Made by a program: the position numbers and the translations under genes | Assembly: GCA_000993595.1 (NCBI GenBank) | Contig: LBWJ01000008.1 | Coordinates: 10,514 to 74,513, forward strand | Direction of reading: 5' to 3' | DNA length: 64,000 nucleotides | Source: Candidatus Peregrinibacteria bacterium GW2011_GWC2_39_14 | GTDB lineage: Bacteria; Patescibacteriota; Gracilibacteria; UBA1369; UBA12463 | Notes under the pieces: generated by a model | The model's input: the letters and a program-made list of their open reading frames with translations, nothing else | The model's database searches: none | Told to the model about the DNA's origin: nothing | In this document: positions 3,021-21,243 of the stretch, one piece after another | Layout of the letters: each line of letters begins with the position of its first letter | Position numbering within the stretch: position 1 is the first letter of the stretch

Positions 3021-3069
3021 CAAACAAGGTTAATATATAGTATTATAACCTCCTTTAATAAAATTAAAA

Positions 3070-5358: not shown

Positions 5359-5532
5359 ATTCTGATATTGCGAATCGATTTAAGCTTGCCGCGCGGCAAA
5401 AATCTATATCGAAACACAGCTATATGTTTGCGCAAATTTTTCTGAGCTTGTCACGTGACGGAATTCTATATCGTACGATAAATTAGAAATTTCGTAATAT
5501 TTTTTGTTCCTAGAAATAATGCACTTCCATTC

Positions 5533-5561
5533 TTGCATTTTCCGCATTTGTATGCTATAAT
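5533..5561 (+). promoter_or_regulatory. sigma70-type promoter of the cyclase gene
   Basis: TTGCAT-17 nt-TATAAT with extended -10 TG. Confidence 0.55.
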
Positions 5562-5646
5562 TTCATGATATTGTAATAAAAAAACGTGCGATTGGGCGCG
5601 GCTAAAAGTTACGATAAGAAGCGCCCTGTTTCGCGCAATAATTATT

Positions 5647-7773
5647 ATGCAAAAAATAAAAACAAAAATTTTGGCGCTTGCCGGCATGCTTGTTTTGGTT
5701 TCCGTGCTCGTTTTTGCGGGGATTTTTTCCGGCGCACTTAAATCTTGGAACCTTAAACTCCAAAACGTTTTATATCAAAAAACCGCAGATTTAAGCCAAA
5801 ATATTGTTATCATTGAAATCGATAATAAAAGTCTTGATGACACATCCGGTCTCGGTCGTTTTCAAAATTGGCGCAGAACTTTTTATGCAAAAGTGCTTAA
5901 TGAAATCGAAAAAGGCGCTCCAAAAGCTGTCGCATTCGATATCTTGTTTTCCACACGTACTCGCGGAATTCCGGAAGATGCGATGAAAGCGAAATTTAAC
6001 GAAATCAAAAGTCTCACTCCCGAAAACGCAAAAGATTTTGTGGATTTTTTAAGCTCATTTATATTTAAAGATAACCATCCGGATGACATCGCATTTGCGG
6101 AGGAACTTGGAAAATATGACAATGTTTTTATCGCGCAAAATGCAGTTATTCAAACTGAAAAACCGCAAAGCTATTTAACGGCAACATCGATAATTAATCC
6201 GATTGAAATAATTCGTAGTAGTGCGCAAAACGGCAACATAAGCGTTCTTCCCGATGCGGATAATGTCGTCAGAAGAATTCCGTTGGCAGTGATATATAAA
6301 GAAGATCCAAATCTTAATTTGCCGCTTGCTATAGCGCAATTTGCATATCCAAATATCGCGTATCCGGCAGGCTCAACGCCGTCCGATAACGGCATGCTTA
6401 TTAATTATAAAGGCGCGGCCGGAATTTCTCGTTTCAAAAAATTCTCTTTCACTGATGTCTATAACGGAAAAATCGATCCTTCCGAATTCAAAGATAAAAT
6501 AGTTTTGATTGGCGCAACGGCAAAGTCACTTCAGGATTTGCAATATACTCCAATTTCAACTTCCACCCCGATGCCCGGTGTGGAAATTCAGGCGCAAGCA
6601 ATCGAAACGATTTTGAACAAAGATTATTTGCTTCCGCAAAGCCGTACGACGACGCTCGCGATTTGCTTTATTTTGGCCGCAATCACAATTTTATTCGCGA
6701 CGAATTTTCACTTCATCGCAGGAATTTTAATAATAGTTATTCTTTCAGGTCTGCACTTTTTATACGCAAAATACATGTTCGATAAAACAAATAATTCCGC
6801 CGAAATTGCAGACATGGTTTATCCATATTTATCAATTTTGCTAGCATATATTTCAAGTTTGATTTATCGATATTTTGCCGAGTATAAAGCAAAATCAGTA
6901 ATCAAAAACGCATTCGGTCATTACGTTAACGAGTCGGTTGTGAATGAAATAATCAAGCATCCGGAAATGTTAAAACTTGGCGGAGAGAAAAAAGAAATAA
7001 GTGTCTTTTTCACTGACATAGAAGGCTTCACTTCATATTCGGAACTTCTTCCGCCGGAAATGGTTACAAATATTTTGAATAAATATTTTTCCGCGATGTC
7101 CAAAGTGATTTTGGCGCATGGAGGCACTCTTGATAAATTTGAAGGTGACGCGATTATGGCTTTCTTTAACGCTCCAATCGATCAGACGAATCACGCGGAA
7201 CTTGCATGTCAAACGATTCTGGAAATGCGACGCGCCCTTGAAGAACTTAATAACAGCTTAAAAATCGGCAATTTTCAGATGATAAATTTCCGTACAGGAA
7301 TTTCAACAGGACAAGCGGTCGTCGGCAACCTTGGCTCGGAAAACCGCTTTGATTACACGATTATTGGCGATACGGTTAACACAGCAAGTCGTCTTGAATC
7401 CGCAAATAAACAATTTGGCACAAATATTATCGTCTCCGAATCAACGTACGAGCAGACAAAAGATAAATTTATTTTCCGTGAAATCGATTTAATCCGTGTT
7501 GTCGGAAAACTCAAACCAATTCACGTTTATGAGCTTATGTCAGAGAAAAACAATTTTTCAGAAATCGGCGCAAATTTGAAATCCGAATTCGAAAAAGCAC
7601 TCGCTTTATATCGCGAATGCAGATTTGAAGAAGCAAAAACCGCTTTTGAAGAAGCCTTAAAAATCTATTCCGAAGACGGCCCATCCAAAACTTACATTTC
7701 TCGTTGCGAAGCCTTTATCAAAAACCATCCACCATGGAACTGGGATGGCGTTTGGCAGATGACGAGCAAATAA
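5647..7773 (+). CDS. CHASE2-domain class III adenylate/guanylate cyclase with C-terminal TPR-like region
   Basis: CHASE2 motifs (IVIIEID, FDILF, VLIGATA, PGVEIQA), TM segments, and cyclase motifs FTDIEGFT, DKFEGDA and DYTIIGDTVNTASRLE. The K/D specificity residues suggest adenylate cyclase. Confidence 0.92.
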   Translation: MQKIKTKILALAGMLVLVSVLVFAGIFSGALKSWNLKLQNVLYQKTADLSQNIVIIEIDNKSLDDTSGLGRFQNWRRTFYAKVLNEIEKGAPKAVAFDILFSTRTRGIPEDAMKAKFNEIKSLTPENAKDFVDFLSSFIFKDNHPDDIAFAEELGKYDNVFIAQNAVIQTEKPQSYLTATSIINPIEIIRSSAQNGNISVLPDADNVVRRIPLAVIYKEDPNLNLPLAIAQFAYPNIAYPAGSTPSDNGMLINYKGAAGISRFKKFSFTDVYNGKIDPSEFKDKIVLIGATAKSLQDLQYTPISTSTPMPGVEIQAQAIETILNKDYLLPQSRTTTLAICFILAAITILFATNFHFIAGILIIVILSGLHFLYAKYMFDKTNNSAEIADMVYPYLSILLAYISSLIYRYFAEYKAKSVIKNAFGHYVNESVVNEIIKHPEMLKLGGEKKEISVFFTDIEGFTSYSELLPPEMVTNILNKYFSAMSKVILAHGGTLDKFEGDAIMAFFNAPIDQTNHAELACQTILEMRRALEELNNSLKIGNFQMINFRTGISTGQAVVGNLGSENRFDYTIIGDTVNTASRLESANKQFGTNIIVSESTYEQTKDKFIFREIDLIRVVGKLKPIHVYELMSEKNNFSEIGANLKSEFEKALALYRECRFEEAKTAFEEALKIYSEDGPSKTYISRCEAFIKNHPPWNWDGVWQMTSK

Positions 7774-7808
7774 ATCAGTGTTAATATGAGCATGATACAT
7801 AAATATTC

Positions 7809-8585
7809 ATGGCAACAAATTCTTCAAAATTAAACGCTAAGTTCTACAATAATTTCGCTTCTATTCACGATATCATGCTTCCAATTGAAGAACGCTTGTC
7901 TGGCAAATCTTTTTTCGAATATATTTTAAAAAAAGATTTTAAGAAAAATGAAATTTTAGATTGTGCATGTGGTACGGGAATTCATGTAATTCTTTTATCA
8001 AAGCTTGGATATAAAGTCGATGGAATGGATTTGTCTTCAGGAATGATTAAACAGGCCAAAATAAATTTAAAAAAATTTAATATAAAAGCCAATTTAAAAG
8101 TAGGCGATTTTAGAAAAATAAAATCAGTATATGGCGAAAAGAAATATGACTTTGTGGCTTGCCTTGGCAATTCTTTGGCGTATATGCAAACTGAAAAAGA
8201 TTTGAAGAAAGCTCTTGGGGAAATGTTTAATGTGTTAAAGCCAAATGGAATGGTTATTATAAGTCAAAGAAATTATGACAAATTATTAAAAGATAAGAAG
8301 AGATATAATGTGATACAGCAAGGCAAATTCACGTTTTTATATATTTACAATTACTTAAAAAATAAGGTGATTTTTAATATTATCGCTGGAGCTACGAATA
8401 ATAATCGCACTACGTTTCAAACTTTTAAAACCACTTATAATCCAATTTTGCAGAAAGATTTGAAAAAGCATATGCAAGAAATGGGATGTAGAAATATAAA
8501 ATTCTATAATCAAGGAAATGAAAAAGAATATTTTAAGTTTAATAAAGAAAGTGACGAGTTTTTTACTATAACGGGGACGAAATAG
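7809..8585 (+). CDS. class I SAM-dependent methyltransferase (glycine/sarcosine N-methyltransferase-like)
   Basis: ILDCACGTG motif I, GMDLS, CLGNSL, LKPNG; AT-rich; 3' end overlaps the convergent radical SAM gene. Confidence 0.85.
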   Translation: MATNSSKLNAKFYNNFASIHDIMLPIEERLSGKSFFEYILKKDFKKNEILDCACGTGIHVILLSKLGYKVDGMDLSSGMIKQAKINLKKFNIKANLKVGDFRKIKSVYGEKKYDFVACLGNSLAYMQTEKDLKKALGEMFNVLKPNGMVIISQRNYDKLLKDKKRYNVIQQGKFTFLYIYNYLKNKVIFNIIAGATNNNRTTFQTFKTTYNPILQKDLKKHMQEMGCRNIKFYNQGNEKEYFKFNKESDEFFTITGTK

Positions 8586-9639
8586 CGGATTTGTCGATAT
8601 AGTCGCCAGGATTAAAGTACCTCCAAAATAAAGGGCATCCTCCTATACACTTCATTCTCATTTCGCAGGCATCGCAATCTTCGGATGGATATTTCCAGTT
8701 TTCAGGACCAATAGTACCTCTTACTCGTAATAAAATATCTCTAACTTGTTCTCGTGGTTTAATTTTTTGCTGATCGTCAAGAATGGCTTCAATAGGGCTG
8801 TTAACCTGATGAGTGCAGGCCAATATATTACCGGTTGGGTCAAAAGCTATTCCAGACCCATCGTAAATATTACATTCGCTCATCGCGCCACCGGAAAGAG
8901 GTATCAAATACGATTCGTCTATCATACTTGTTAGCAGATCTCTATCAAACAAGCAAAGCGGAACCGTTGCATAAAAATGAGCCTGTATTCCTTCAGATTT
9001 AAGGACTTTATAAGAACCTTGAATGATTCTTGCTAATTCGGCAGGAGACAAAATCTTGTCATTGACGACGTCGCCCTCTATCGGAGACGCTAAATTATAG
9101 ACAATGGATTTGACTCCAAGGTTGTGAAGGAACCTTGCCATGTCGCAGACCCTGTCTTTATTTGAAGCATTGACGGTTGTCAGTGTTACAAAAGGAACGT
9201 TCAACTTAATGCAATTTTTTATACCGGCTAAGGTTTCATCAAAACTTCTTTCGACGCCAGTATTACCAGCGTGTTCTTCTTTGGAGCTTCCATGTACGGA
9301 TATTGCGGTAAAGGACATGCCTGCATCAATCATTCTTTGTAAAAAATCTTCATTTGCATATTTTCGTCCATTTGTAACAACCTTCATTTTTAGTCCATGT
9401 TGTGAACCATATTCAATAACATCAACTATATTGGGATGTAAAGTTGGCTCTCCGCCTATTAAAGTGCATTTTTTTGCTCCAAGTTCGGTCATTGAATCGA
9501 TAATGCCTTTTTGATTTTCAAGAGACAGTTTCTCAGATGGGAACCCTTGCGCTTCTGTGTAGCAAAAATTACAACGATTATTACATGAGTAGTTTGATAC
9601 TATCCAAAATCCTGCGAATTGTTGTTCCGATGTAGTCAT
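8566..9639 (-). CDS. radical SAM / SPASM-domain protein
   Basis: CNNRCNFC (CxxxCxxC), GGEP, VTNG; C-terminal C..C and CDAC..CIGGC SPASM cysteines. Confidence 0.92.
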   Translation of the reverse strand: MTTSEQQFAGFWIVSNYSCNNRCNFCYTEAQGFPSEKLSLENQKGIIDSMTELGAKKCTLIGGEPTLHPNIVDVIEYGSQHGLKMKVVTNGRKYANEDFLQRMIDAGMSFTAISVHGSSKEEHAGNTGVERSFDETLAGIKNCIKLNVPFVTLTTVNASNKDRVCDMARFLHNLGVKSIVYNLASPIEGDVVNDKILSPAELARIIQGSYKVLKSEGIQAHFYATVPLCLFDRDLLTSMIDESYLIPLSGGAMSECNIYDGSGIAFDPTGNILACTHQVNSPIEAILDDQQKIKPREQVRDILLRVRGTIGPENWKYPSEDCDACEMRMKCIGGCPLFWRYFNPGDYIDKSAISSPL

Positions 9640-9646
9640 CTAAATA

Positions 9647-10894
9647 TTATTTTCTTAAATCTATAATCCTTTTAATCTTTCCCGTGGACCTTACCCTTTC
9701 AATGCTGTTTTTTGCAACGCATACAATTTCAAAAGAATGAATTCTGCCGGTTTGAAGCTCGCTTTCCAAATCTTGTATTTCAGATATACATTTTTCTTTT
9801 ATCCTTCCGGCTAAATTGGTTGAAGGGCTTTCAGATTCAATCATTATTTTAATTGCATCGCGATGGTTGTAGTTGCCTACTATAATTTGAAAAGCATCTG
9901 AACATTCCGGGAATTTGCTAAGAATATTTCTGATTTGATCAACGGCAACATGGAGGCTTGCCGAAACAATCATGTCTTGGCTTCTGCCTTTAACGTTAAG
10001 CGTTTGAGTTTCGCCACCACATTCGCATTCGTCGGTTGTTAACGCCCCGATGTCTCCGGTTCTATATCTAACTAATGGTATTAATCTTCTTTTTAGAGTG
10101 GTAATAATTATCTCTCCGAATTGTTCATCTGGCACAATATTCCCTGTTTCAGGATCAACAATTTCGACATATTGATAAGGGAAAACGTGATAATCGCTCA
10201 AGGTTTTATTGGCACATTGATATCCTATGGCAGCACTTTCCATGCATCCATATGCGGATTTCACGACTGCATTAGGAAAAATCTTGCATAGATAATCGAG
10301 CGTAGATTGAAAAACTTTTTCACCAAGACAATATATTTTGTTAACTTTTGCTCTGGCCTCATCATCATTTTTTAAATAATCAGCTACTGTCAAAATAGTT
10401 GAAGGCATGCCGGTAAAGCAGTTGGCGCCGAATCGTTTAACGAAAAATTTTATTTGTGCCATGGCTTCTTCGTCCAACCTTGTTCCGCCTTGGGGTATGA
10501 TTCTGCATCCAAGATGAGAAAGAGCTATGTTTGTTGTAGAAAAAACACCCCAAATGCCGGGCATAAAAAGATTTATAACCGTATCGGCGGGACCAAGGTT
10601 TAACCCTTGAAAATATTCATGCTGGTCGCCAATATCGTCAAAATCTCTAAGAATCAATCTGGGCTCAGACGTAGTGCCTCCCGATGAAAACACAAAACAA
10701 CCGGCAGGATTTTTTGCGCAAAGGTCGTTGTTATTAGGCGGAGTATTCTGTCGATATGTTTTATTGTCTAAAAAAGGAATAGCGTGAAAATCTTCGAGTT
10801 TATCAACGGCCTGTGTTGGTAAAACCCTTTCATAATAAGGAGCTTGTTTTGCATATTCTACGGCACTTGAGATGTCTCCGATTCTATTCATCAT
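9647..10894 (-). CDS. phenylacetate-CoA ligase (PaaK)-like adenylate-forming enzyme
   Basis: SSGGTTSEP P-loop, YGCMES, VEIVDPETG, RYRTGD, GRSQD, TGKIKRIID. Confidence 0.9.
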   Translation of the reverse strand: MMNRIGDISSAVEYAKQAPYYERVLPTQAVDKLEDFHAIPFLDNKTYRQNTPPNNNDLCAKNPAGCFVFSSGGTTSEPRLILRDFDDIGDQHEYFQGLNLGPADTVINLFMPGIWGVFSTTNIALSHLGCRIIPQGGTRLDEEAMAQIKFFVKRFGANCFTGMPSTILTVADYLKNDDEARAKVNKIYCLGEKVFQSTLDYLCKIFPNAVVKSAYGCMESAAIGYQCANKTLSDYHVFPYQYVEIVDPETGNIVPDEQFGEIIITTLKRRLIPLVRYRTGDIGALTTDECECGGETQTLNVKGRSQDMIVSASLHVAVDQIRNILSKFPECSDAFQIIVGNYNHRDAIKIMIESESPSTNLAGRIKEKCISEIQDLESELQTGRIHSFEIVCVAKNSIERVRSTGKIKRIIDLRK

Positions 10895-11907
10895 TGAGTT
10901 GTTATTGGCAGTGATTGGTCGTCACTTTCTACATTAAAGCTTGATTGTAAAGCGTCAAAGTCTCCACTAAACTGAAAAACTAATTTGGCCGCCAAGTCTA
11001 ATTCATCAAGCCCATGTACCCTGGCAAGCTCTTTCAGTTTTTTATCAGTTGCAAGAGTGACGCCATGTAAAGCGTAAAGTATAAATTTATATTGTTCGGT
11101 GAAAACAGCTTGTGCGGGAAGTGCGCTATAGACATTTTCAAAAAAATATCTCATAGCCGGAATAAGAGCTTTGCTGTCATAGCCTTCCTTTTTAAGTCTT
11201 TCGAAAAGAACAAACATTTTTTCCGTTCTTGCGTTGCCGGCGCCTTTGCCAAAACCAAGCAGTGATCCATCTAAGAATTCCGCGCCACAGTTCATGGCTT
11301 CCAGGGAATTCGCCTCAGCAAAACCCATGTTATCATGAGGGTGAAATCCCAAAAGAATATCAGTGCGTCTTCTAAGCTCCGATATGCGTCTTCTAACATC
11401 TTCGGGCAACATCGTTCCATTGGTGTCGGCAAGATAAAAAATATCAGTACCATTGCCTTCGGCTTCTAGCATAGCATTAGCGCATTCATCTGCAGAATAC
11501 TGACTTGATCTAATTAAACTGACAGCAACTTGGAGTCCATTTTTTTTAAAATAATCAATTGGCTTTGCGGTCTGTTTTATTTCCCATCTGTTACAGCCTA
11601 GCCTAACCATGTCAACGCTCTGAAAAAAAACATCCGAATATAGTCCGGGATTAAAACCATCAGGTAATAGCATAGTCGCTATTTTAGTCCTTGTGCCTTC
11701 GAAAAGCGCAGCCACTCTGGCGATAAACTCCTCGTTATAATCTCTTAACGAAAAAACTCCATTTTTTGGTGGTTGTATGTATGAAGGTTCTACGTAATCA
11801 ATCCCGGAATGTTTCAATCTCTTAAGAGTCTCAAGCACATGCGTTTCGCTTGGATGTAAGCCATCTACGTTTGTAGTCTCTCTGAATGTAACGTCCATGT
11901 ATTGCAT
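10891..11907 (-). CDS. DRE-TIM (HMGL-like) metallo-aldolase/synthase, 4-hydroxy-2-oxovalerate aldolase-like
   Basis: DVTFRE, YLADTNG, GFHPHDN (HxH metal site), GFGKGAGN. Confidence 0.85.
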   Translation of the reverse strand: MQYMDVTFRETTNVDGLHPSETHVLETLKRLKHSGIDYVEPSYIQPPKNGVFSLRDYNEEFIARVAALFEGTRTKIATMLLPDGFNPGLYSDVFFQSVDMVRLGCNRWEIKQTAKPIDYFKKNGLQVAVSLIRSSQYSADECANAMLEAEGNGTDIFYLADTNGTMLPEDVRRRISELRRRTDILLGFHPHDNMGFAEANSLEAMNCGAEFLDGSLLGFGKGAGNARTEKMFVLFERLKKEGYDSKALIPAMRYFFENVYSALPAQAVFTEQYKFILYALHGVTLATDKKLKELARVHGLDELDLAAKLVFQFSGDFDALQSSFNVESDDQSLPITTQ

Positions 11908-11912
11908 AAGAT

Positions 11913-12563
11913 TTACCTCAAAGGTTGGTTATATTTAAACGTCCTTCTTGCTTCATCTAGACGCATGCCGCCTATGACTGCTGAACGTATTTTATCTTCA
12001 ACTTCATGTATTTTTTGTGAACCTTCAAGAACAAGTTCAATATTGTGTTTAGGTACAACGATAACGCCGCTTTTGTCGGCCCTGATAAAATCACCGGGAT
12101 TAACAGTAACTCCTGATAGGGTTATATTTTCTTGAACAGATGCGAGTCTAACTCTATTTTTGCCAGTCCTCATAAAAGCATGTTTTGAAAAAACGGGATA
12201 ATCAGAGCTGGATATTACAGAGAGATCTCTGCATGATCCATCTATAACGGTACCGGCAAGTTTACGCATCCCTGCGACAAGAGTGAGGATGTCTCCCCAA
12301 ACCGTACAATTATCAATCCCGCCATTATCGATGACAACGACACTGCCTTCAGGAACATCATCTATGTAATCGCCAGCTTTTGCGGAAACGCCAGGTGATA
12401 CAGGTTCAAATTTGACAGTAAAAACAGTGCCAGTTATTTCGGTATTTCTACTCCTTGGAGCTATACCAAGGCAAGCGCCATTTATATGTAAATTGTCCAA
12501 TGCATCAGATATTTCAGGCGTGTCGTATTTTGACAGCAAGGATATTAATTCATTTTGCTCCAT
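11913..12563 (-). CDS. RraA family / HMG-aldolase-like protein
   Basis: DTPEISDAL, VWGDIL, VIDGSCRD, VNPGDFIRADKSGVIVVP. Confidence 0.9.
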   Translation of the reverse strand: MEQNELISLLSKYDTPEISDALDNLHINGACLGIAPRSRNTEITGTVFTVKFEPVSPGVSAKAGDYIDDVPEGSVVVIDNGGIDNCTVWGDILTLVAGMRKLAGTVIDGSCRDLSVISSSDYPVFSKHAFMRTGKNRVRLASVQENITLSGVTVNPGDFIRADKSGVIVVPKHNIELVLEGSQKIHEVEDKIRSAVIGGMRLDEARRTFKYNQPLR

Positions 12564-13143
12564 AGCGATTGTGGTGAGTTATGGAGTCAGGGTCTCTTTT
12601 TGGGAGTAAAATATTTTGACCTGCGTCCAGCGAATAAACTGTGCCATTTGTCACTGGAACTACGGTCGAGGTATGAGCTGGATAGCCAAGTCCTATTAAT
12701 GAATCTACCTTATGCGTTTCAGGAACGCTTAAAAGTTGAGAAAGTGCCACTCTGTTTATGCAATGTAAAAATACGCTTTCTATGTCAAGGCTATGTGCGT
12801 AAAGCATTATATTTTGAGCTGCTGCGCCAGCATCATATTCATATCCGACGTCTCTTATTGTTCTATTAACCAGCATTGCAATATAGGAATTTGGTGCAAA
12901 TACTGGATCAGCGAATGCGGTATTTACCTTATTTCTTGTGCCCCATAAAATATTTGCAAATACTTGTTCGCATAATTCAGGGTCTTTTATCAAAACATAT
13001 TCCAGCGGCTGATCATTCATTCTGCTTGGGCATAAAGAAGCAAGGTGTGCCATTTCTTTCATTTCATCAAGGGGAACGTCTTTAGCGTGATTAAACTTTC
13101 TAATCGTTCTTCTGCTGGCTATGATTTCACCTACTGCATTCAT
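12550..13143 (-). CDS. nitroreductase family flavoprotein
   Basis: SRRTIRKF, CPSRMNDQP, DAGAAAQNIMLYA, IGLGYP. Confidence 0.9.
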   Translation of the reverse strand: MNAVGEIIASRRTIRKFNHAKDVPLDEMKEMAHLASLCPSRMNDQPLEYVLIKDPELCEQVFANILWGTRNKVNTAFADPVFAPNSYIAMLVNRTIRDVGYEYDAGAAAQNIMLYAHSLDIESVFLHCINRVALSQLLSVPETHKVDSLIGLGYPAHTSTVVPVTNGTVYSLDAGQNILLPKRDPDSITHHNRYGAK

Positions 13144-13154
13144 TGTATTGTTTT

Positions 13155-14285
13155 TTAAACGATATCTTCAAAGCACGCTCCGCTATTGAATAAAGCGCCG
13201 TTCCCTTTTTTATAAACCACTCTGCACGGGCATCCATAGCAACCTTCTTCTTTGTGCTCTACGCAAGTTCTACATTTACCGGAAACATTATCTAAAATAT
13301 TTCTAACCTTCTCCACCTCAGGGCTGAGCCATAAATCCGCAAGAGATTGTTCTCGAATATTGCCGATATGCGGAAGTCCAATACACGGAGCAACGTCTCC
13401 CATGATCGTAACCATAATGTGATACAAGTAATAATTACAATGGATTCCGGCGTATGGAGGCGCAGGCTTCCAATGAAAACCATATTCTTGTCTGTCTATT
13501 TCAGAGAGCTTTTCATACAGAGCTCGTAATTCACCAGGCGTTATTTGAAGATTCTCTTTTACAAATGGAGTAGCGGCTCTTTCGTTGGTGAGAAATGGCT
13601 TTACGAGTGGAAAAATATTATGTTCCCTGCACCATCTGAAGAGGCTTTCAATCTCATGTAAATTTTTTTTCATAACTAAAATATCAGCCCCGAGCTTAGT
13701 TGGAGCATTCTTATTAAAACCTGCTGCAATGAGTCTCTCCATTCCTTCGGCTCGTGCTCGTGCGTAGCCTTTTTTGCCGGCAAACCAATCTTGCAATCCC
13801 TCATCGAGACTATGGATTTTAACAATAACAGATGCATTTGCAGCCTTTAATTTATCAACAGCCTCATCCGTCATTCCGGCAGCGTGTGTAAAAATAACAG
13901 GCTTAAGCTCAAGAGATTTCATATAAGCAAGTTGGTCCCAAAAAATAGGATCAACCAAAGGTTCTCCTCTGCCGGCAATATGGACCATCTCTCCACCAAG
14001 AGCCTTGAATTGATCAAGCAAATCCCTTCGTTCACCTAATGTCATTTCGCCGGGCATAGGTGTTCCACTTTTTGTTTGGCAATAAACACAATGTAAATCA
14101 CATGCACCGCTTACTCCGGCATATATGTGTTTCAATAATCGTTTGTCTTTTATAAGCGCTAATTTATCCGAATCAAAAATACCCCATCCGTCTAAAACAG
14201 GCGGTTTTTGAAGTAGAGTGGCGCCCTGATCATCAGGGCAAGTGCTGGCTTCTATAAGTGGTGCGGATCGATTAGAATCAGACAT
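13155..14285 (-). CDS. radical SAM / SPASM-domain protein
   Basis: CDLHCVYC; GRGEP; C-terminal HC..GDVAPC..GNIRE..CRTC..CYGCPC. Confidence 0.92.
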   Translation of the reverse strand: MSDSNRSAPLIEASTCPDDQGATLLQKPPVLDGWGIFDSDKLALIKDKRLLKHIYAGVSGACDLHCVYCQTKSGTPMPGEMTLGERRDLLDQFKALGGEMVHIAGRGEPLVDPIFWDQLAYMKSLELKPVIFTHAAGMTDEAVDKLKAANASVIVKIHSLDEGLQDWFAGKKGYARARAEGMERLIAAGFNKNAPTKLGADILVMKKNLHEIESLFRWCREHNIFPLVKPFLTNERAATPFVKENLQITPGELRALYEKLSEIDRQEYGFHWKPAPPYAGIHCNYYLYHIMVTIMGDVAPCIGLPHIGNIREQSLADLWLSPEVEKVRNILDNVSGKCRTCVEHKEEGCYGCPCRVVYKKGNGALFNSGACFEDIV

Positions 14286-14300
14286 GAGGGTAAATAAATT

Positions 14301-16757
14301 TTATTGGATAATTTTAACGTCAAAGCTTTCGCCTTCTATAAATTGAATATTTTTAGCCTTCGAAAAGCCTTTTATATCATCAATAAATGGCTTTAAGGAT
14401 TCTAAAATTTTTGTAGGTCCATAAATTTCAAGAGTTTCTGATTCTGTTGAAAAAGCTATTCGTTCAGTCGTTCTAATGCGTCTTATATTGCCGATAAGAG
14501 TGATGAAATTATTCATTCCAAATCTTAAAGACTCATGCTCAGAGCCGTCTACTCCTTCCATGCCTTGCGGGTATTTAGTTTTATGGAGGCTTGATTCAGG
14601 TTCGTATTTTTTATAATAATGTTGATAAATTCCATCAGATACGTGTGGCATGTAAGGAGCAATGAATTGAAGAACGGCTTTAAGTCCAAGATAAAGAGCG
14701 GTTTGCGCAGATCTTTTTTTCTTTTCGCCTCCTTCGATCAATTCAGGGGAGCGTAATCGGGTTTTAACCATTTCCAGATAATTATCGCAAAAATCTTTCC
14801 AAAAGAAATTTTCAAACTCTTGACGTCCGGAACCAACTTCGTATTTTTCAAAAGTTGAATTCATAAGGTCTGCAACTTCTCTAATGCGTAATAAAAGCCA
14901 CTGATCCGTAGGTTCCATATCGGATTCGGCAACCATATCTTTTGTAGGGTCAAAATCTTCCAAATTGCCGATCGAAAATTTAGCGGCGTTCCACAGTTTT
15001 GTAATAAGTTTTTTACCTTTTAAAATTTCATTTTCGTCGAATACAACGTCTTTTCCCAAAGAGGCTCCACAAGCCCAATATCTGACGGCATCAGCAGAGT
15101 ATTTCGCAATAAGCTCTTCCGGCGATTCGGGGCCTTTTCCGCCGGCGCCTTTTGATTTGCTAAGTTTTTCTCCTTTTCGAGCTAAAACATGACCGGATAT
15201 CATGATATTACTCCAAGGAGCACTCTGCTCATGCAATTCACTCATCACTATGGTATAAAGTGCCCAAGTTCGGATAATGTCATGTGCTTGCGGTCTCAAG
15301 TCCATCGGATATACACGATTGTGCAAGTCGGCATTTTGCCCGCATCCCGCGTTGATTTGAGGAGTCAAAGAAGAGGTCGCCCATGTGTCTAATACGTCAG
15401 AATCCGCAATTATATCATCAGCGGTATGTTCTGCGGGCATGTTCAATGGTAGCTCTGCGTGTGGGTCAACAGGTAGCTGGCTTTCATCAGGAAAAATGAT
15501 TTCGCCGGTTTTTTTAGAGTACCAAACGGGGATTGGGACTCCATAATACCTTTGGCGAGAAATCGCCCAGTCCCATTTTAGATTACTTACCCATTGTAAA
15601 TACCTTTCTTTCATATACGGCGGATGCCATTTAATTTCATCGGCGCGTGCTATCAATTTATCTCTCATCTCCATTATTTTGATGAACCATTGTGCGATTG
15701 GAATTATTTCGATTGGCGTTCCACATCTTTCATGCACTCCGACATCGTGTTTTATTGGAATAGAGTCAATGAGATCTCCGGAAGTTTTTAATTTATCAAT
15801 TATTATTGCTCTTGCTTTATTGCAAGAAGCGCCATTGATTTCATCAATACCAGAGTCAACCATCCTGCCGTCTTTGCCGATAATTACTTTTTCAGGCAGG
15901 TGATGCTCTTTTATCCATTTCATGTCCTGCTCGTCTCCATAACTGCAACACATGACAACTCCAGTTCCTTTGTTTATACTAACAGCATCGTCCGCAATTA
16001 TTTTTACGGTATCGCCCAAAGGAGTGGTTATATTTTTGCCGATAAGGTTTTTATATCTTTCGTCTTCAGGGTGAACAAAAACAGCTACACATGCAGGCAA
16101 GAGTTCGGGACGAGTAGTCGCGATATTGACGCTACACCCATCTTCAAGTGTAAATTTTATAGTATGAAAAGATGAAGACAACTCCTTGTCGTCCACCTCT
16201 GCCTGAGCAACAGCAGTGCCGCATTCAGGACACCATAGAGTAGGAGAGTCCACTCTAACGGCGTTTCCCTGCTTTAACAGAGAGAGAAAGGAGGCTTGAG
16301 ACGTTCTACGTACTTCAGGAGAAATAGTTGAATATTCATATCTCCAGTCAACGCTTAATCCTAAACTCCTCCACAATTCCTTAAATTTTCTTCTATATCC
16401 TTCGGTTATTTCTAAGCATTTGTCCGTAAATTCTTCTCTCGTAAATTCGTTAGCCTTGTGTCCAATTTGTTTTTCCACAAGCCTTTCAGTAGGTAGTCCA
16501 TTATCATCAAATCCAAACGGATAAAAAACATTTAAGCCTTGCATTCTTTTATATCTCGCGAGAACTTCAGCTTGAGTATAAGAAAATATATGGCCAATAT
16601 GCATGTTGCCGGAAACGGTTGGAGGAGGCGTGTCTATAGAGTAAACCTGAGCAGGAGAGTCTAAGTCGAATGCATTTATGCCGTTTTGTTCCCATAAGTC
16701 CTGCAATCGTCCCTCTTCTTCCTGTGGGAAATGCTTATTTTCAAAAAATTCGTGCAT
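14301..16757 (-). CDS. valS: valyl-tRNA synthetase, archaeal-type (short C-terminus)
   Basis: IDTPPPTVSG, HIGH, GFDDNGLPTER, ATTRPELL, WAISRQR, RPQAHDIIRTW, KLSKS; no C-terminal coiled-coil arm. Confidence 0.93.
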   Translation of the reverse strand: MHEFFENKHFPQEEEGRLQDLWEQNGINAFDLDSPAQVYSIDTPPPTVSGNMHIGHIFSYTQAEVLARYKRMQGLNVFYPFGFDDNGLPTERLVEKQIGHKANEFTREEFTDKCLEITEGYRRKFKELWRSLGLSVDWRYEYSTISPEVRRTSQASFLSLLKQGNAVRVDSPTLWCPECGTAVAQAEVDDKELSSSFHTIKFTLEDGCSVNIATTRPELLPACVAVFVHPEDERYKNLIGKNITTPLGDTVKIIADDAVSINKGTGVVMCCSYGDEQDMKWIKEHHLPEKVIIGKDGRMVDSGIDEINGASCNKARAIIIDKLKTSGDLIDSIPIKHDVGVHERCGTPIEIIPIAQWFIKIMEMRDKLIARADEIKWHPPYMKERYLQWVSNLKWDWAISRQRYYGVPIPVWYSKKTGEIIFPDESQLPVDPHAELPLNMPAEHTADDIIADSDVLDTWATSSLTPQINAGCGQNADLHNRVYPMDLRPQAHDIIRTWALYTIVMSELHEQSAPWSNIMISGHVLARKGEKLSKSKGAGGKGPESPEELIAKYSADAVRYWACGASLGKDVVFDENEILKGKKLITKLWNAAKFSIGNLEDFDPTKDMVAESDMEPTDQWLLLRIREVADLMNSTFEKYEVGSGRQEFENFFWKDFCDNYLEMVKTRLRSPELIEGGEKKKRSAQTALYLGLKAVLQFIAPYMPHVSDGIYQHYYKKYEPESSLHKTKYPQGMEGVDGSEHESLRFGMNNFITLIGNIRRIRTTERIAFSTESETLEIYGPTKILESLKPFIDDIKGFSKAKNIQFIEGESFDVKIIQ

Positions 16758-16785
16758 AGCACATAAAATTAATAATTGGTGTATA

Positions 16786-16813
16786 ATTATAACCCTCTGC
16801 TTCTCTATGTCAA
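16786..16813 (-). promoter_or_regulatory. sigma70 promoter driving the valS-led operon
   Basis: Minus strand TTGACA-16 nt-TATAAT, about 30 nt before the valS ATG. Confidence 0.7.
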
Positions 16814-16844
16814 TGTGATATTATTTAGAGCAGAAGTTGTAAAT

Positions 16845-17504
16845 TTAATCGCGGATTATATCTATGATTTTTCTTAAAATTGGTTTCGCATTTCGCGCTG
16901 CAAAATTAGCCTTTTCAGAAAAATGCGATAATTGTAAGTCGGGATCTGGATGATATATCCAATCAGATACCCCCTTAACAACATGTGGGGTAACGCCATG
17001 TGTTTTACACCCCTTTACGGTCCAAAAGGCCTCCATATCAACAACGTCTCCAAGGTCTTTTAGTCTATCTAATTCCAAAATACCATCTTTCAATGAGACA
17101 TATCTATTGCCGGTCAACACTCTGGATAGCTCGAGCTCGCTATCGTCTCTCAATTTTGCCAGACTATCTGCTAGTTGGACGACTTTTTCTCCGTCTTGAT
17201 CATGAGACTGGGCTGATTCTGCAAGAACAACACTGCCTACAGGGAGCGCGCTATTTAGGGAGCCGGCAACTCCTATGTTTATAACATCTTTAATAGAAGG
17301 AAATCTATTTAAAAGATGCTCTATCCCCAAGGTAGCACACGATTGTCTCATTCCGGTCATCATCATTGCAAGATCGCCGCCTTCATAAATTCTAAAAGGG
17401 GCTTTTTCAATCTGCACCATGCCTAACTGGCGAGGATTTACTATCAATAGAGTTTCCCTAATAGTCGCGCATACAATTCCAATTTTTGGCCCATTGTTCA
17501 TCAA
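16845..17504 (-). CDS. MTA/SAH nucleosidase-like (PNP/UDP phosphorylase superfamily)
   Basis: IGIVCATIRE, INIGVAGSL, VLTGNRYV, VVDMEA, VKGVSD; upstream TTGACA-17-TAAAAT at 17527-17555. Confidence 0.8.
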   Translation of the reverse strand: MMNNGPKIGIVCATIRETLLIVNPRQLGMVQIEKAPFRIYEGGDLAMMMTGMRQSCATLGIEHLLNRFPSIKDVINIGVAGSLNSALPVGSVVLAESAQSHDQDGEKVVQLADSLAKLRDDSELELSRVLTGNRYVSLKDGILELDRLKDLGDVVDMEAFWTVKGCKTHGVTPHVVKGVSDWIYHPDPDLQLSHFSEKANFAARNAKPILRKIIDIIRD

Positions 17505-17592
17505 ATATTTTTTAGAATAAGAGCCAATTTTAAAAGTATTCTACGGTTATGTCAAACGCATGGGTAGATAAATAACGAAAATATCTGTCCAA

Positions 17593-19401
17593 CTATCTCA
17601 CAATTTCCACCGTGATATTGTCCGGTATCGAAGGCACAGTCGGCGCCCAAGCCGGCCAGCTTTTTGTTTCGACTTTTTCAACTTCAGGCAAATTTCTCAC
17701 AAAATCTTTTGCGTCACTAATCTTTTTGCCCGTTATATTTTCTTTAATTTTTCTAACCAATTGCGCACCGAGTTCTTGCGAAGCGTCCAAGTCAAATTCT
17801 TCCGCAGCTTTAATTGTAGCCGTTATTTTTATATGTCCGGTATTTTTATCAATATCAAAAACCCTATAGCTCAGCGATCCTTCATCGATTCTTGCGATTC
17901 TTTTTTGCGGACTTTGTTTGGTTTTTATTTCCGCTTTCAGAATTTCAAGAACCTCGGTTTTGTTGAAGTAATAGCCTTTCAAATCAACTTCGCCATAAAC
18001 GTCAAATTGATCCTGAATTTTTTCTTCAAGCGTGTTATCAACGCTTACTCTTGGTTCGGAAATATCAATTGCGAATTTATTATTTACCAAATCAAATTTC
18101 ATCTTTTCAGCGAGAGAGGAGTTTTTCTCATTAACCGCTTTCACAAGCTCATCTGCAGCGGTATTAGCAAGAGTTGTTTTCATGTTTTTAACAGCGGTTT
18201 TCAAGTCTTCCTTTGAAATCTTTTTGCTAAAATCACTTTTTCCACCTGTCATTGGAGTCGAACTTTCCCCGTATAATTGTTGTTGCGTGCTACCCATAAG
18301 CGCCGGCAAAATAAATTTGGTTGGTCCAAGGTTTCCGCGATCTCCAATCACATTTCCGTTCGCATCAAATTCATCGGCAAAAACCGGAACTTCAAGTTTT
18401 CCCGGATTCACGCCATCAGACTTCGGCACAACAACAGGCGATTGAATTCGGAAAACAACGCCATCCGCATTTTGAAATCTTGTTTTTGCAATAAGTGGCC
18501 TTGTATCAGTCGTATTATTTATAATCGTAAGTTTTCCTGATGCATTAGACCCTTTAAAGATTTTTCCCGTCGCAGAAAATGAATTCGTTTTTTTAACAGC
18601 CAGTGTAATTTGATGCATGGCAAGAACTCGTGGCTGATGCGAATCAACTTCGCCCTTATTCTTTTCATAATCAGAAAGCAAAACATTTGAAGACTGTTCA
18701 AGAACGCTTGATTTTGGCGTTATATAGATCGTAATTCCCGGCAAGGCGATATATGCAATTATCAAAAGCACGACAACGCTGATGGAAATAAGCGCAACAA
18801 GTGCTTGCTTGTTTGGCGCAATCAAAACCAGTTTTCGATTAACAGGATCAGTCACCGGCACAACATCTTCATGACTGCTTTTTCTTTTAAAAATATTAAA
18901 TCCTTTTGGCATCATTGAAGGCCTTTCGCGTTTACTTCCGCGCCCAATCAAATCAACAATTGAAACCTTTTTGCTGGAAAGCCTTGTTGGAGTTTCATCT
19001 TCCATCGTATTTACAGACGCTTTTAAAGGACTGATTTTTATTTCTTTATCATCTTTATTTTTCCATTGTGAAAGAATCGGAAGTCCACCCATGTCTACGC
19101 GATTATAAACAGGCACGCCAATCTGTCCGCACAAATGAATTCCATTCGTATCGCTCGTTATAATCGACATTTTTTTGCCCAAATCTTCAATCTTCTTCTT
19201 TAAAATTTTGAGATTCACAAGGCTCTGGAAGATCATTGCTTGTTTTGGCGCAACAATGTAAATATCATTCATTTTTGTCTCATGCGCACGATCAAAAATA
19301 GTCGTGACTTCATCATCTATTTCCGCATAAATAATTTTTTTTGCGGGAACGATTTTTTCTTCCGGCGAAGTATTTTCTTGTTGTGAGGTTTTGTCTGTCA
19401 T
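17593..19401 (-). CDS. conserved CPR membrane protein, baseplate-J-like periplasmic region
   Basis: N-terminal IYAEIDDEVTTI..SLVNLKILKK, single TM, A.GKLTIIN..L.AKTRF, GN; lies directly downstream of the ftsA-like gene as commonly seen in CPR genomes. Confidence 0.6.
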   Translation of the reverse strand: MTDKTSQQENTSPEEKIVPAKKIIYAEIDDEVTTIFDRAHETKMNDIYIVAPKQAMIFQSLVNLKILKKKIEDLGKKMSIITSDTNGIHLCGQIGVPVYNRVDMGGLPILSQWKNKDDKEIKISPLKASVNTMEDETPTRLSSKKVSIVDLIGRGSKRERPSMMPKGFNIFKRKSSHEDVVPVTDPVNRKLVLIAPNKQALVALISISVVVLLIIAYIALPGITIYITPKSSVLEQSSNVLLSDYEKNKGEVDSHQPRVLAMHQITLAVKKTNSFSATGKIFKGSNASGKLTIINNTTDTRPLIAKTRFQNADGVVFRIQSPVVVPKSDGVNPGKLEVPVFADEFDANGNVIGDRGNLGPTKFILPALMGSTQQQLYGESSTPMTGGKSDFSKKISKEDLKTAVKNMKTTLANTAADELVKAVNEKNSSLAEKMKFDLVNNKFAIDISEPRVSVDNTLEEKIQDQFDVYGEVDLKGYYFNKTEVLEILKAEIKTKQSPQKRIARIDEGSLSYRVFDIDKNTGHIKITATIKAAEEFDLDASQELGAQLVRKIKENITGKKISDAKDFVRNLPEVEKVETKSWPAWAPTVPSIPDNITVEIVR

Positions 19402-19404
19402 GTT

Positions 19405-20655
19405 TTATATTTGCATAAGTCTTACAACTTTTTTGAGCAATTTTGAAAGCACATATTCTTCTCCTATAAATTCTAGCGCAATATTTGCTAATGCCAAAGG
19501 CGTAACATCATTTATTTCGGTCAAAAGTTTTGTATCGTCAGTCATATTTTCAACCATTTTTGGCGTCATGAAATTTACGATTGGCTTTCTTACAAAAGGT
19601 AATGTTTTCACCCATTCACGCCCTTCAAGAATTTCTTTTATTTCAGGCAAAAGTGAACCACCTCCGCATAGATAAATTTTCGACGGGAGCATGTCGATTT
19701 GTTCGAATTCACTAAGCGTTAAAATGACTCCTGTAAGCCAAACATCGCTATCACCTTTCATTGCATCACGAACAAGTTTTTCTGAATGTTTTTCCAGTTT
19801 ATACGTGCTGTATGCAATTTTGATTCTCTCTGCATCCGTAAAAGAAACATTCAAACTTTGTGCGAGTCTTTTTGTGAAAGTTCTGCCGCCAATTGTAAAC
19901 ATTTTCGTTCCTTCAACTCTGCCGTTTCGAACAATCGCAATATCAGTTGTTCCGCCTCCAATATCAATAAAAATTCCATTCAAATTTATGCTTTCAGTTT
20001 CGCCAAGCGATTTTGCAACAGCATAAGGTTCCGCGGAAATTGCCAAGAGTTCCATATTTAATTCCGATGCAATTGTTTGAAGCGCGCCAAAATGTACAAG
20101 CGGAGCAAACGCGTTAAATATGCTTATGATTACATCTTTTCCTTGAAATCCAATTGGATTACTCACGCGATATCCATCAATCGTCACGTCTGCAATCGCC
20201 GCATTAACAAGTTTAACGTCAATTTCATTATAGCCTGTTTCATATGCCAATTGCGCGCGCACCTGATCAAACGCTTTCCACTGAATTTTATGAACAATAT
20301 TTTTAAGTTCCGCCAAATCAATCTTCGTATCAGGCTCGCGTCTTGTGTAATGCATGCTTAAAGTCGCACCTTTAACAAGTTCACCGGCAATCCCGATAAC
20401 CATTTTATCCGGATTAACATTTGCAATTCTTTTTGCGTCATTAATCGCAGAGTGGCAATTTTGAATAACGCTCGCGATGTCCATAACAACGCCACTTTGC
20501 ATGTCTCCAACTTTTTGATAGCACTTTCCAACGCCAATAACTCGCCCCTTTGTGCCTTCACTACAGCAAATAAGCGCTTTTACGACATCGGTTCCGATAT
20601 CCAGCGCCAAATAAAAATTCCCTCTTCTACGCAAAGACGACGAGAAAAATCCCAT
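19405..20655 (-). CDS. FtsA-like actin-fold ATPase
   Basis: LALDIGTDVVKA, AEPYAVA, IDIGGGTTDI, GGRTFT, AERIK, LCGGGS. Confidence 0.85.
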   Translation of the reverse strand: MGFFSSSLRRRGNFYLALDIGTDVVKALICCSEGTKGRVIGVGKCYQKVGDMQSGVVMDIASVIQNCHSAINDAKRIANVNPDKMVIGIAGELVKGATLSMHYTRREPDTKIDLAELKNIVHKIQWKAFDQVRAQLAYETGYNEIDVKLVNAAIADVTIDGYRVSNPIGFQGKDVIISIFNAFAPLVHFGALQTIASELNMELLAISAEPYAVAKSLGETESINLNGIFIDIGGGTTDIAIVRNGRVEGTKMFTIGGRTFTKRLAQSLNVSFTDAERIKIAYSTYKLEKHSEKLVRDAMKGDSDVWLTGVILTLSEFEQIDMLPSKIYLCGGGSLLPEIKEILEGREWVKTLPFVRKPIVNFMTPKMVENMTDDTKLLTEINDVTPLALANIALEFIGEEYVLSKLLKKVVRLMQI

Positions 20656-20680
20656 GTCAATATATTATTACAAATAAAGA

Positions 20681-20740
20681 AATTTACAATTTACAATTTA
20701 CAATTTACATTCAATTTACAATTTTCAAGTGCTAATTTTC
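20681..20740 (+). repeat. degenerate heptamer tandem repeat (AATTTAC)n
   Basis: AATTTAC x4 perfect, followed by degenerate units. Confidence 0.85.
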
Positions 20741-21089: not shown

Positions 21090-21172
21090 GCGCGCAATAT
21101 ACATGAAGAAAATGAGATATTCTTAAATTATTCTTGGCTTATTTATGAATTTTTTATGAACGCTACAGTTTA

Positions 21173-21231
21173 AAAATTGTAAATTAAATCTTGAAAATTG
21201 AATGTAAATTGGAGTTTGAATCTTGTAAATT
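21173..21231 (+). repeat. degenerate heptamer repeat (GTAAATT)n, inverted relative to 20681-20740
   Basis: aattgtaaatt..cttgaaaattgaatgtaaatt..cttgtaaatt. Confidence 0.75.
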
Positions 21232-21243
21232 CGGATACAAGGC

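Follow-up and report, generated by a model that had tools for sequence, protein, structure and literature searches.

A rare gene island with a second valyl-tRNA synthetase gene among radical-SAM, aldolase-like and adenylating enzymes in a Gracilibacteria genome

Aminoacyl-tRNA synthetase (aaRS) genes located in biosynthetic gene clusters (BGCs) represent, according to the accessible parts of two sources, either resistant copies of the target of the product or suppliers of a tRNA-dependent step (10.64898/2025.12.02.691738; PMC13515044). The enzymes named in such cases, as far as the available text of these sources and of PMC5059758 extends, are LeuRS, ArgRS, and ThrRS, with a second LeuRS present in the producer of agrocin 84 (PMC5059758) and ThrRS in the case of the vibriomycins (PMC13515044). 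The tiarins are associated with a BGC-encoded aaRS, indolmycin is another such case, and valanimycin is cited as a precedent for a tRNA-dependent step (10.64898/2025.12.02.691738). Here we describe an island of nine genes, among them one for a valyl-tRNA synthetase (ValRS) designated ValS2, in a stretch of 64,000 nucleotides (nt) from Candidatus Peregrinibacteria bacterium GW2011_GWC2_39_14 (contig LBWJ01000008.1, positions 10,514 to 74,513; hereafter the window). The island is a real, rare accessory unit, horizontally acquired and under selection, and ValS2, judged by its relatives, is a second, xenologous copy of ValRS; the link between ValS2 and a product of its neighbors is plausible but unproven.

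A search of the literature on ValRS self-resistance returned only the paper on LeuRS and agrocin 84 (PMC5059758) and no ValRS immunity gene. Likewise, no paper with the enzyme set of the island was found in the literature on gene clusters of RraA, radical S-adenosylmethionine (radical-SAM, rSAM), nitroreductase, and PaaK proteins. Further inhibitors of aaRSs include mupirocin, directed at IleRS, borrelidin (ThrRS), and albomycin (SerRS). In the ARTS approach, target copies are recognized by duplication, co-location, and foreign origin, and ValS2 would combine all three, as a second essential copy, co-located with the cassette and of foreign origin. Like clusters with target-copy self-resistance, the island carries an extra essential aaRS gene, foreign to the host lineage, that lies amid biosynthetic genes with which it is probably co-transcribed in a transferable unit. 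Unlike them, it encodes no polyketide synthase (PKS), non-ribosomal peptide synthetase (NRPS), peptide that is made by the ribosome and modified post-translationally (RiPP), or known nucleoside pathway, and no exporter; its host is a bacterium of the candidate phyla radiation (CPR), and both the inhibition of the native enzyme and the resistance of ValS2 are putative. A different parallel is provided by pylTSBCD, a transferable set of an aaRS, a radical-SAM enzyme, an ATP-dependent ligase, and an oxidoreductase. The island joins the same four kinds of enzyme, but it lacks a dedicated tRNA, and ValS2 is canonical by the NF009687 model and by its motifs; a pyl-like cassette for expansion of the genetic code was rejected because no dedicated tRNA gene accompanies the aaRS.

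Boundaries, operon and selection of the island

The genes and promoter-like sites of the island are listed below by position in the window, with protein lengths in amino acids (aa).

7809–8585, plus strand: methyltransferase, class I SAM-dependent, 258 aa, convergent, inside the island
8566–9639, minus strand: rSAM_B, radical-SAM enzyme carrying a cysteine motif of the SPASM type, 357 aa, final gene of the operon
9647–10894, minus strand: PaaK-like adenylate-forming ligase, 415 aa
10891–11907, minus strand: HMGL-like (DRE-TIM) protein of the aldolase/synthase family, 338 aa
11913–12563, minus strand: RraA-like protein of the class II aldolase/decarboxylase family, 216 aa
12550–13143, minus strand: nitroreductase-family flavoenzyme, 197 aa
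13155–14285, minus strand: rSAM_A, radical-SAM/SPASM enzyme, 376 aa
14301–16757, minus strand: valS (ValS2), valine-tRNA ligase, 818 aa, first operon gene
16786..16813, minus strand: candidate promoter of the seven-gene operon, TTGACA-16-TATAAT, 12/12 matches
16845–17504, minus strand: PNP_UDP_1 protein, like nucleosidases of methylthioadenosine and S-adenosylhomocysteine (MTA/SAH), 219 aa, upstream of valS2, inside the island
17555..17527, minus strand: promoter-like site of the PNP_UDP_1 gene, 11/12 matches

A DNA search of four genomes of the same genus delimits an insertion of 9.8 kb (7777–17573) that nearly coincides with the interval, and holds all nine genes, of an earlier, sequence-only reading of the window. 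To its left, positions 5521–7775 match contig C5 of a sister genome (G003, 100% complete) at 42763–45015, and to its right, 17574–20669 match the same contig at 45184–48278, both with 92% identity. In the junction alignment, the two flanks lie ~169 bp apart in G003, with an unrelated spacer between them, and the absence of the cluster from the syntenic locus of a sister genome, proposed earlier as a check, is thus seen. Another genome of the genus (G002) carries the island at ~91% identity, on a contig that stops within valS2. A variant with ~90% identity is present in run X10 of another study, where its contigs span the left junction (6721–10998), the rSAM_A/valS2 junction (13597–15597), and the right junction (17451–18867). 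Because these contigs cross both ends of the island as well as the joint between rSAM_A and valS2, misassembly is ruled out. No contig joint skipping the whole island was found in four runs, a result that is uninformative on absence.

The neighbors of the island are a gene for a CHASE2-adenylate-cyclase on one side and a gene for a 602-aa protein of no known family on the other. Neither mobility genes nor direct repeats are seen in the junction alignment, and neither an integrase (Pfam) nor a tRNA (tRNA scan) is found at the island ends. Relatives of the HMGL-like protein with E <1e-100 are present in one of four other genomes of the genus and in none of the other 56 of the order. Weak matches only (E 1e-6 to 1e-14) were obtained in a further eleven genomes, the proteins concerned being longer (378–557 aa). 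The host assembly (G000) comprises 1.32 Mb in 21 contigs, with 100% completeness and 2.5% contamination; this size, together with a 94%-identical protein named 'Candidatus Gracilibacteria bacterium' at NCBI, is consistent with the CPR origin proposed earlier. The contrast in tetranucleotides proposed earlier as a check was not found, with 14.7% of genome windows of the same size lying as far from the genome mean as the island, or farther, and the G+C content of the island is 39.0% versus 38.5% for the genome. The methyltransferase gene, with 28.1% G+C as compared to 38.6–42.0% in the other eight genes, suggests a separate origin for this gene within a mosaic island.

The seven genes from valS2 to that of rSAM_B are separated, in order downstream of valS2, by +15, +11, −14, +5, −4, and +7 nt, and intergenic gaps of 87–88 nt mark the edges of the operon. 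The gene order, coordinates, and families given in the sequence-only reading, as well as its spacing, with genes that overlap or lie at most 15 nt apart, were confirmed by the list of open reading frames and by Pfam. Its TTGACA/TATAAT promoter was found as well, with all 12 positions matched and a 16-nt spacer, and the MTA/SAH-nucleosidase-like and convergent methyltransferase genes that it placed at the flanks are both present and lie inside the island. The promoter lies 29 nt ahead of the ATG of valS2 and is the sole site of that quality in 7500–21500. Since the number of promoter-like sites of any quality in this region (42) is at the level expected by chance (41.4 in shuffles), the weight rests on the quality and position of this single perfect site. 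The seven genes are predicted to be read from this one strong promoter as a single transcript. An Rfam search of 7000–18500 yielded no riboswitch or T-box upstream of valS2, its lone match being a chance-level one to a long non-coding RNA. The only tRNA gene of the window is that of tRNA-Leu at 40242–40327, while the genome contains three ordinary tRNA-Val genes, and no suppressor tRNA was found.

The ratio of nonsynonymous to synonymous substitution rates (dN/dS) was calculated between G000 and G002 for eight genes of the island, as the PNP-like gene lies past the end of the G002 contig. It equals 0.040 for valS2 (430 codons), 0.049–0.089 for six enzymes, and 0.135 for the methyltransferase, with dS between 0.25 and 0.52 for the eight genes; the corresponding values for a flanking gene are 0.057 and 0.56. 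This strong purifying selection, taken together with the dS values, indicates that the island has persisted, complete and under constraint, over roughly the time since the strains diverged.

ValS2 and the native ValRS

ValS2 scores 976.7 bits against the NF009687 model (cut-off 738) and carries the signature motifs HIGH at residue 53 and KLSKS at residue 531, the latter being KISKS in the family consensus. The native ValRS of the host (ValS1), encoded on contig C6, is of the bacterial type (1166 aa; 1016.5 bits against NF004349, with a cut-off of 704). It is 31% identical to ValS2, retains intact HLGH and KMSKS motifs, shares 94–95% identity with the orthologues from G002 and G003, and is intact in both G000 and G002. 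The gene of ValS1 (L002:238–3738, minus strand) encodes 1166 aa, as compared to 873 aa in G002 and G003; the extra C-terminal tail of ~290 residues is rich in Lys and Glu and extends beyond the match to the ValRS model.

A gene of the ValS2 type occurs in two of 61 genomes of the order (G000 and G002), the rest giving matches with 27–33% identity only. The possibility that valS2 is a housekeeping gene was rejected on the basis of the separate bacterial-type ValRS on C6 and of the foreignness of the ValS2 type to the order. Elsewhere in the class, 36 genomes out of a sample of 400 carry genes of this type, most of these genomes belonging to one family with in-frame TGA genes, and it is the sole ValRS type detected in three genomes (G112, G084, and G104). 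In a FastTree phylogeny of 71 sequences, ValS2 and the metagenomic protein P0084 (75–76% identity) form their own branch, with a support of 100 and a stem of 0.44. No clear donor of ValS2 is found in this tree among relatives labelled as Sericytochromatia, Gracilibacteria, Absconditabacteria, or SR1.

Among 148 alignment columns conserved at a level of at least 93% in 119 relatives, ValS2 departs at seven, whereas seven control sequences depart at 0, 0, 1, 1, 1, 2, and 11. The departures common to ValS2 and P0084 are K258A, T277Q, I532L (in K-I/L-SKS), and A644G, the first two of which are located at columns conserved at 97% in the same relatives. In the alignment with the ValRS from Thermus (1GAX), A258 of ValS2 falls at A259 and Q277 at L278. 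Residue Q277 is thereby flanked by D275 and D278, whose counterparts in the Thermus enzyme are D276 and D279, residues that we take to belong to its editing pocket. In the editing sites of IleRS and LeuRS, an aspartate anchors the α-amino group, and negative determinants vary between the editing sites of different enzymes, as described in the accessible part of PMC9023258. The valS2 fragment of G002 lacks the part of the gene that encodes residues 258 and 277. We treat the K258A and T277Q departures as a lead rather than as evidence for altered function.

The cassette enzymes and their relatives

All nine families of the island score above the Pfam gathering thresholds. Curated NCBIfam cut-offs are reached, among the matches listed (the best 25 for four proteins), by none of the eight proteins other than ValRS, and solved structures include no close relative of known function for any cassette enzyme. 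The NCBIfam cut-offs and the literature searched thus bear out the earlier view that this gene combination is not a described pathway. rSAM_A, which matches both the Radical_SAM and SPASM families of Pfam, has a CX3CX2C motif (C62/C66/C69) and eight C-terminal cysteines. Its best NCBIfam match is NirJ2, with 78 bits versus a cut-off of 500, its best solved relative is SkfB (30 bits), and in the ESM Atlas it falls in generic rSAM/SPASM clusters only. rSAM_B (PF04055, 79.3 bits; no Pfam SPASM match) includes a CX3CX2C motif at C19/C23/C26 and a C-terminal CX2CX5CX3C motif at C322–C335, which we take to be SPASM. Its best solved relative is BlsE, a cytosylglucuronate decarboxylase (48.9 bits). 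The nitroreductase (PF00881, 73.7 bits) reaches no NCBIfam cut-off among the matches listed, and the best solved relative of the RraA-like protein (PF03737, 120 bits) is 3k4i, annotated as 'uncharacterized protein' (169 bits).

The HMGL-like protein (PF00682, 93.9 bits) scores 117.5 against PRK08195, as compared to the cut-off of 229, and its best solved relatives, at ~66–69 bits, are a putative aldolase and 4-hydroxy-2-oxovalerate aldolases; residues D5, R9, E10, H189, and H191 are invariant in an 11-sequence alignment (A1). The PaaK-like ligase, which matches the AMP-binding and AMP-binding_C_2 families of Pfam, carries an SSGGTTSEP loop at residues 70–78 and a C-terminal GK. It scores 132.9 against the DVU_1553 family (cut-off 300) and 109.7 against PaaK (646), and is most similar among solved structures to phenylacetate-CoA ligase (PDB 4r1l, 113 bits). 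The methyltransferase (Methyltransf_25, 69 bits) has glycine/sarcosine N-methyltransferase as its best NCBIfam match (96 versus 350), and the PNP_UDP_1 protein (PF01048, 45.5 bits) scores 47.6 and 34.9 against models of MTA/SAH nucleosidases with cut-offs of 169 and 73.8, respectively.

Several known pathways and systems were compared with this set and rejected. AhbC, AhbD, and NirJ, enzymes of the alternative haem and haem d1 pathways, are the top-scoring named NCBIfam families for both rSAM proteins among the matches listed, but their scores are 75–97 bits versus cut-offs of 500–650, and no siroheme decarboxylase partner was found. For a RiPP matured by radical-SAM enzymes, neither a precursor-peptide gene nor a PqqD/RiPP recognition element (RRE) was found in the island, although a precursor could be encoded elsewhere. 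In the case of the futalosine pathway to menaquinone, the futalosine hydrolase model gives 28.4 versus a cut-off of 124.7, and no Mqn family is present among the listed rSAM matches. Aldolases of the aromatic lower pathways (98.6 versus 286; LigK, 74.5 versus 304.5) were excluded in the same way, no dehydrogenase gene being present in the island. The similarity of rSAM_B to prokaryotic viperin (66.7 bits) covers only positions 8–158 of the 257 of the pVip model, and the protein has the SPASM-type cysteines described above. No cyclodipeptide synthase, Fem/GNAT, or LanB-like Pfam family, which would point to a tRNA-dependent pathway, was detected in the nine island proteins, and, as to defence systems, PADLOC gave only a partial match to the viperin core, a generic methyltransferase match, and a 16-bit effector match.

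Relatives of the cassette are few. Among 5.8 billion clusters, ten relatives of the HMGL-like protein have E <1e-40, one with 94% identity, three with 61–71%, and six with 34–37%. Homologues of rSAM_A with 81% identity are encoded on contigs of 8318, 6460, and 6451 nt, and HMGL homologues with 66%, 71%, and 61% identity are found on contigs of 8318, 6460, and 6451 nt, respectively. Similarly, P0084 (ValRS, 75%), P0205 (rSAM_A, 81%), and P0003 (HMGL, 66%) are each located on a Logan contig of 8318 nt; the matching sizes suggest that these are probably the same contigs. In the metagenomes of JGI, the full cassette was found only on the 94%-identical copy (one of 80 loci, among the matches listed). 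Relatives of rSAM_A in 400 sampled genomes of the class are limited to one in G059 (36% identity), next to genes of the GNAT and cupin families, and to a paralogue in the host itself, and none were found in 400 sampled genomes of the phylum. The paralogue (C9:7755–8759, L198) is a rSAM/SPASM protein of 334 aa with 35–37% identity, whose gene adjoins one of the Trp-repressor family and one for a 280-aa protein without a known family, neighbors that are uninformative.

From a scan of 185,579 species genomes, 80 loci were kept. Among these, the core of the cassette is present on only two contigs, both of one Paceibacterota assembly, with the order of genes as in the island: nitroreductase (49% identity), RraA-like (54–55%), HMGL-like (35%), and PaaK-like (48–55%). 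On the longer contig, the next gene encodes a rSAM/SPASM protein distantly related to both rSAM_A and rSAM_B, and both contigs end 92–98 nt upstream of the nitroreductase gene. In 41 of the 80 loci, the HMGL-like gene is accompanied by an RraA-like gene no more than ~4.5 kb away, in hosts that include Pseudomonas, Bartonella, Legionella, Xenorhabdus, Photorhabdus, and Bacillus. As in the modules of Pseudomonas, Bacillus, Bartonella, Legionella, and Xenorhabdus, the two aldolase genes of the island are adjacent, and the RraA-like proteins are 39–47% identical. Unlike in the island, PaaK-like, nitroreductase, rSAM, and ValRS genes are present in none of the 78 loci outside Paceibacterota. These modules instead carry dehydrogenases, hydrolases, transporters, or LysR regulators. 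An isopropylmalate-dehydrogenase-like gene is often found between the two (Pseudomonas cerasi, L017; Bacillus sp., L009; Lachnospiraceae, L011; 38 further loci hold the module), and the genes beside them encode LysR regulators, EamA transporters, an alpha/beta hydrolase, or a nitronate monooxygenase; PDB 3k4i corresponds to the RraA-like protein of this module. In distant loci, ATP-grasp ligases are found beside the HMGL/RraA pair, once within a glycan cluster (L006). An ATP-dependent ligase thus adjoins the aldolase pair repeatedly in related loci, an arrangement suggesting that the pair may make a small carboxylic acid that the ligase then activates and attaches.

Proposed chemistry and rival explanations

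We infer a pathway, and a role for ValS2 in it, from the chemistry of the families and the arrangement of the genes. The RraA-like and HMGL-like pair would use pyruvate, oxaloacetate, or similar 2-oxo acids to form a branched hydroxy- or oxo-carboxylic acid, with the oxidation state of this acid tuned by the flavoenzyme. The PaaK-like ligase would then convert the carboxylate to an acyl-adenylate and couple it to an acceptor, either CoA or an amine or hydroxyl group, while the two radical-SAM enzymes could functionalize unactivated C–H bonds and the methyltransferase could tailor the product. The nucleosidase-like enzyme might clear 5'-deoxyadenosine or SAH, or else use a nucleoside intermediate. 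ValS2 would serve as an insensitive spare copy of the target of the product, kept for self-protection beside the native ValRS. By analogy with the systems introduced above, a second xenologous aaRS in an operon would be the pattern classically associated with either target-copy self-resistance or a tRNA-dependent step, and our tentative preference, held with some reserve, is that ValS2 is functionally tied to a small-molecule product through self-protection. With an island, a second xenologous ValRS, and selection in evidence, the idea put forward in the sequence-only reading is considerably better founded. Its view of a small-molecule cluster gains from one transferable, conserved, and selected unit, although a relation of the product to valine is not supported. 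The proposed co-occurrence of the genes elsewhere holds for the core from nitroreductase to the PaaK-like ligase, with a rSAM/SPASM gene, in Paceibacterota, in whose fragmented assembly no ValS2-type gene was found; the contigs of 8318 nt and those of run X10 speak for a linkage of valS2 with the cassette.

A number of observations speak against self-protection. The available part of PMC13515044 cautions that a gene which is duplicated or lies next to a cluster may be a false positive. The HIGH region and the PPP(T)V pocket of ValS2 are typical of the family, and K258A and T277Q would fall in the editing domain, not in the synthetic site. Among the island proteins, Pfam and NCBIfam reveal no transporter, exporter, or regulator, and no aminotransferase or aminoacyl-tRNA-using transferase; the island contains no precursor-peptide gene, with no room for one in the operon gaps, and no dedicated tRNA was found in it. 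A second and stronger PNP_UDP_1 gene is located on contig C10 of the host genome, so that the role suggested earlier for the nucleosidase-like gene, which is not the only member of its family, is weakened, and the genome holds seven further rSAM genes. Composition is unremarkable and provides no signal either way. In the Paceibacterota assembly, which is fragmented (0.7 Mb), a ValS2-type gene was not found, just a bacterial-type ValRS with 31% identity. Among five standard-code genomes of the class that were tested, two (G096 and G064) hold both types of ValRS (C1:1246663–1249050 and C1:1032425–1034926 in G096; C7:13471–15744 and C1:132308–134953 in G064) with no cassette beside the gene of the 810-aa type. 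The genes around it are not biosynthetic ones; they encode SLH-domain proteins, a Glu/Val dehydrogenase, and a Band 7 protein, as well as GAPDH and a subunit of DNA polymerase III. The possession of a second ValRS does not, then, necessarily point to a product directed at ValRS, and the class seems to exchange the two types, with repeated coexistence. The earlier suggestion of a ValRS inhibitor is thus strengthened by the finding that valS2 is a second xenologous copy, and weakened by the family-typical synthetic site, the lack of an exporter, and these two genomes.

The same two genomes favor the explanation in which ValS2 is a passenger, that is, the donor's own valS that lay beside the cassette and travelled with it, the product being unrelated to valine. 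We regard this as somewhat unlikely, though well worth serious consideration. The genomes with the ValS2 type as their sole detected ValRS, and its distribution in 36 others of the class, are in accord with it, as are the canonical synthetic site and the missing exporter. Moreover, P0209 (rSAM_A, 64%) and P0123 (ValRS of the 810-aa type, 52%) are both found on contigs of 13528 nt, with no HMGL homologue on a contig of that size, so the adjacency of valS and the rSAM_A-like gene, which this match suggests for another lineage, may be inherited donor synteny. A redundant copy, however, would be expected to decay, whereas in this 1.3-Mb genome both ValRSs are intact, with the dN/dS of 0.040 for ValS2 maintained across a dS of ~0.5. 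In addition, the clade of ValS2 and P0084 is known only from cassette-bearing DNA, and the linkage holds at 66–81% protein identity. It is improbable, in our estimate, that ValS2 instead supplies Val-tRNA(Val), or a mischarged tRNA(Val), to a pathway leading to a valyl conjugate, comparable to the seryl-tRNA step of valanimycin. An aaRS in one operon with biosynthetic genes (presumably co-transcribed), the clade-specific changes K258A and T277Q in the editing domain, and the valanimycin precedent cited in the accessible part of 10.64898/2025.12.02.691738 would fit such a role, but no transferase family that uses aminoacyl-tRNA was found in the island by Pfam, the island has no tRNA of its own, and the native ValRS could provide Val-tRNA.

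The remaining explanations depart further from the reading as self-protection. In one, the cassette would be catabolic, degrading or salvaging organic or aromatic acids by means of a CoA ligase followed by an aldolase or lyase reaction to pyruvate, with ValS2 unrelated. The nearest named relatives of four of the enzymes (4-hydroxy-2-oxovalerate aldolase, CHA aldolase of the LigK type, phenylacetate-CoA ligase, and nitroreductase) and the catabolic appearance of the HMGL/RraA modules with LysR or EamA in Pseudomonas and Bacillus point in this direction. Scores far under the equivalog cut-offs (98.6/286, 74.5/304.5, and 109.7/646), the lack of a ring-cleavage enzyme, a hydratase, or an acylating dehydrogenase partner in the island, and the presence of two radical-SAM/SPASM enzymes and a methyltransferase, which would be atypical, render it quite improbable. 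Very improbable, too, is a function of the island in anti-phage defence or in macromolecule modification, the target being tRNA(Val), ValRS, or a cell-surface glycan, with no free small molecule involved. Radical-SAM enzymes and a methyltransferase do lie beside an aaRS, rSAM_B does match prokaryotic viperin models with 66.7 bits, and a distant HMGL/RraA/ATP-grasp set is part of the glycosyltransferase cluster of L006. Yet the viperin match is restricted to the generic rSAM core of a protein with SPASM-type cysteines, the other PADLOC matches are to a generic methyltransferase and, at 16 bits, to an effector, Pfam finds no glycosyltransferase in the island, and an aldolase pair with an adenylating ligase is a poor fit to tRNA modification. 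We can speculate, finally, that K258A and T277Q could enable ValS2 to retain, on tRNA(Val), a valine analogue produced by the cassette for insertion at valine codons, making the island a portable module with a pyrrolysine-like logic and no new tRNA, but we consider this extremely improbable.

Other features of the window lie outside the island. A gene for a 121-aa protein of the '23S rRNA-intervening sequence protein' family (20739–21104, minus strand) is located within the region 20681–21231, flanked by imperfect inverted arms of 59 nt that are rich in AATTTAC repeats and 76% complementary. In G002 and G003, matches to parts of the arms occur in many contigs, on either strand, and contig depth climbs sharply at this region, which looks like a dispersed small repeat element. 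Another dispersed repeat, a short intergenic one with 73–88% identity to many contigs of the same two genomes, is present at 5399–5505, upstream of the CHASE2-cyclase gene. To the left of that gene, positions 2000–5506 are only 74% identical to C5:39133–42643 of G003, as compared to 92% for the adjacent flanks, forming a local hotspot of divergence that surrounds a protein of 762 aa containing thrombospondin type 3 repeats.

Independently of what ValS2 does, the HMGL/RraA pair is a widespread, apparently uncharacterized two-enzyme module that is worth biochemical study. The island also provides a case on which target-directed genome mining can be tried in organisms other than the usual producers, in which the genomes with both ValRS types and no cassette show how the target-copy heuristic can mislead. 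If the product were indeed directed at ValRS, the island would represent a natural pathway to a ValRS inhibitor that carries its own immunity enzyme, for which no paper was found, and a new, compact enzyme logic that combines an aldolase pair, an adenylating ligase, and two radical-SAM/SPASM enzymes. It would also mean that a genome-reduced CPR bacterium spends ~10 kb on chemical warfare or host manipulation.

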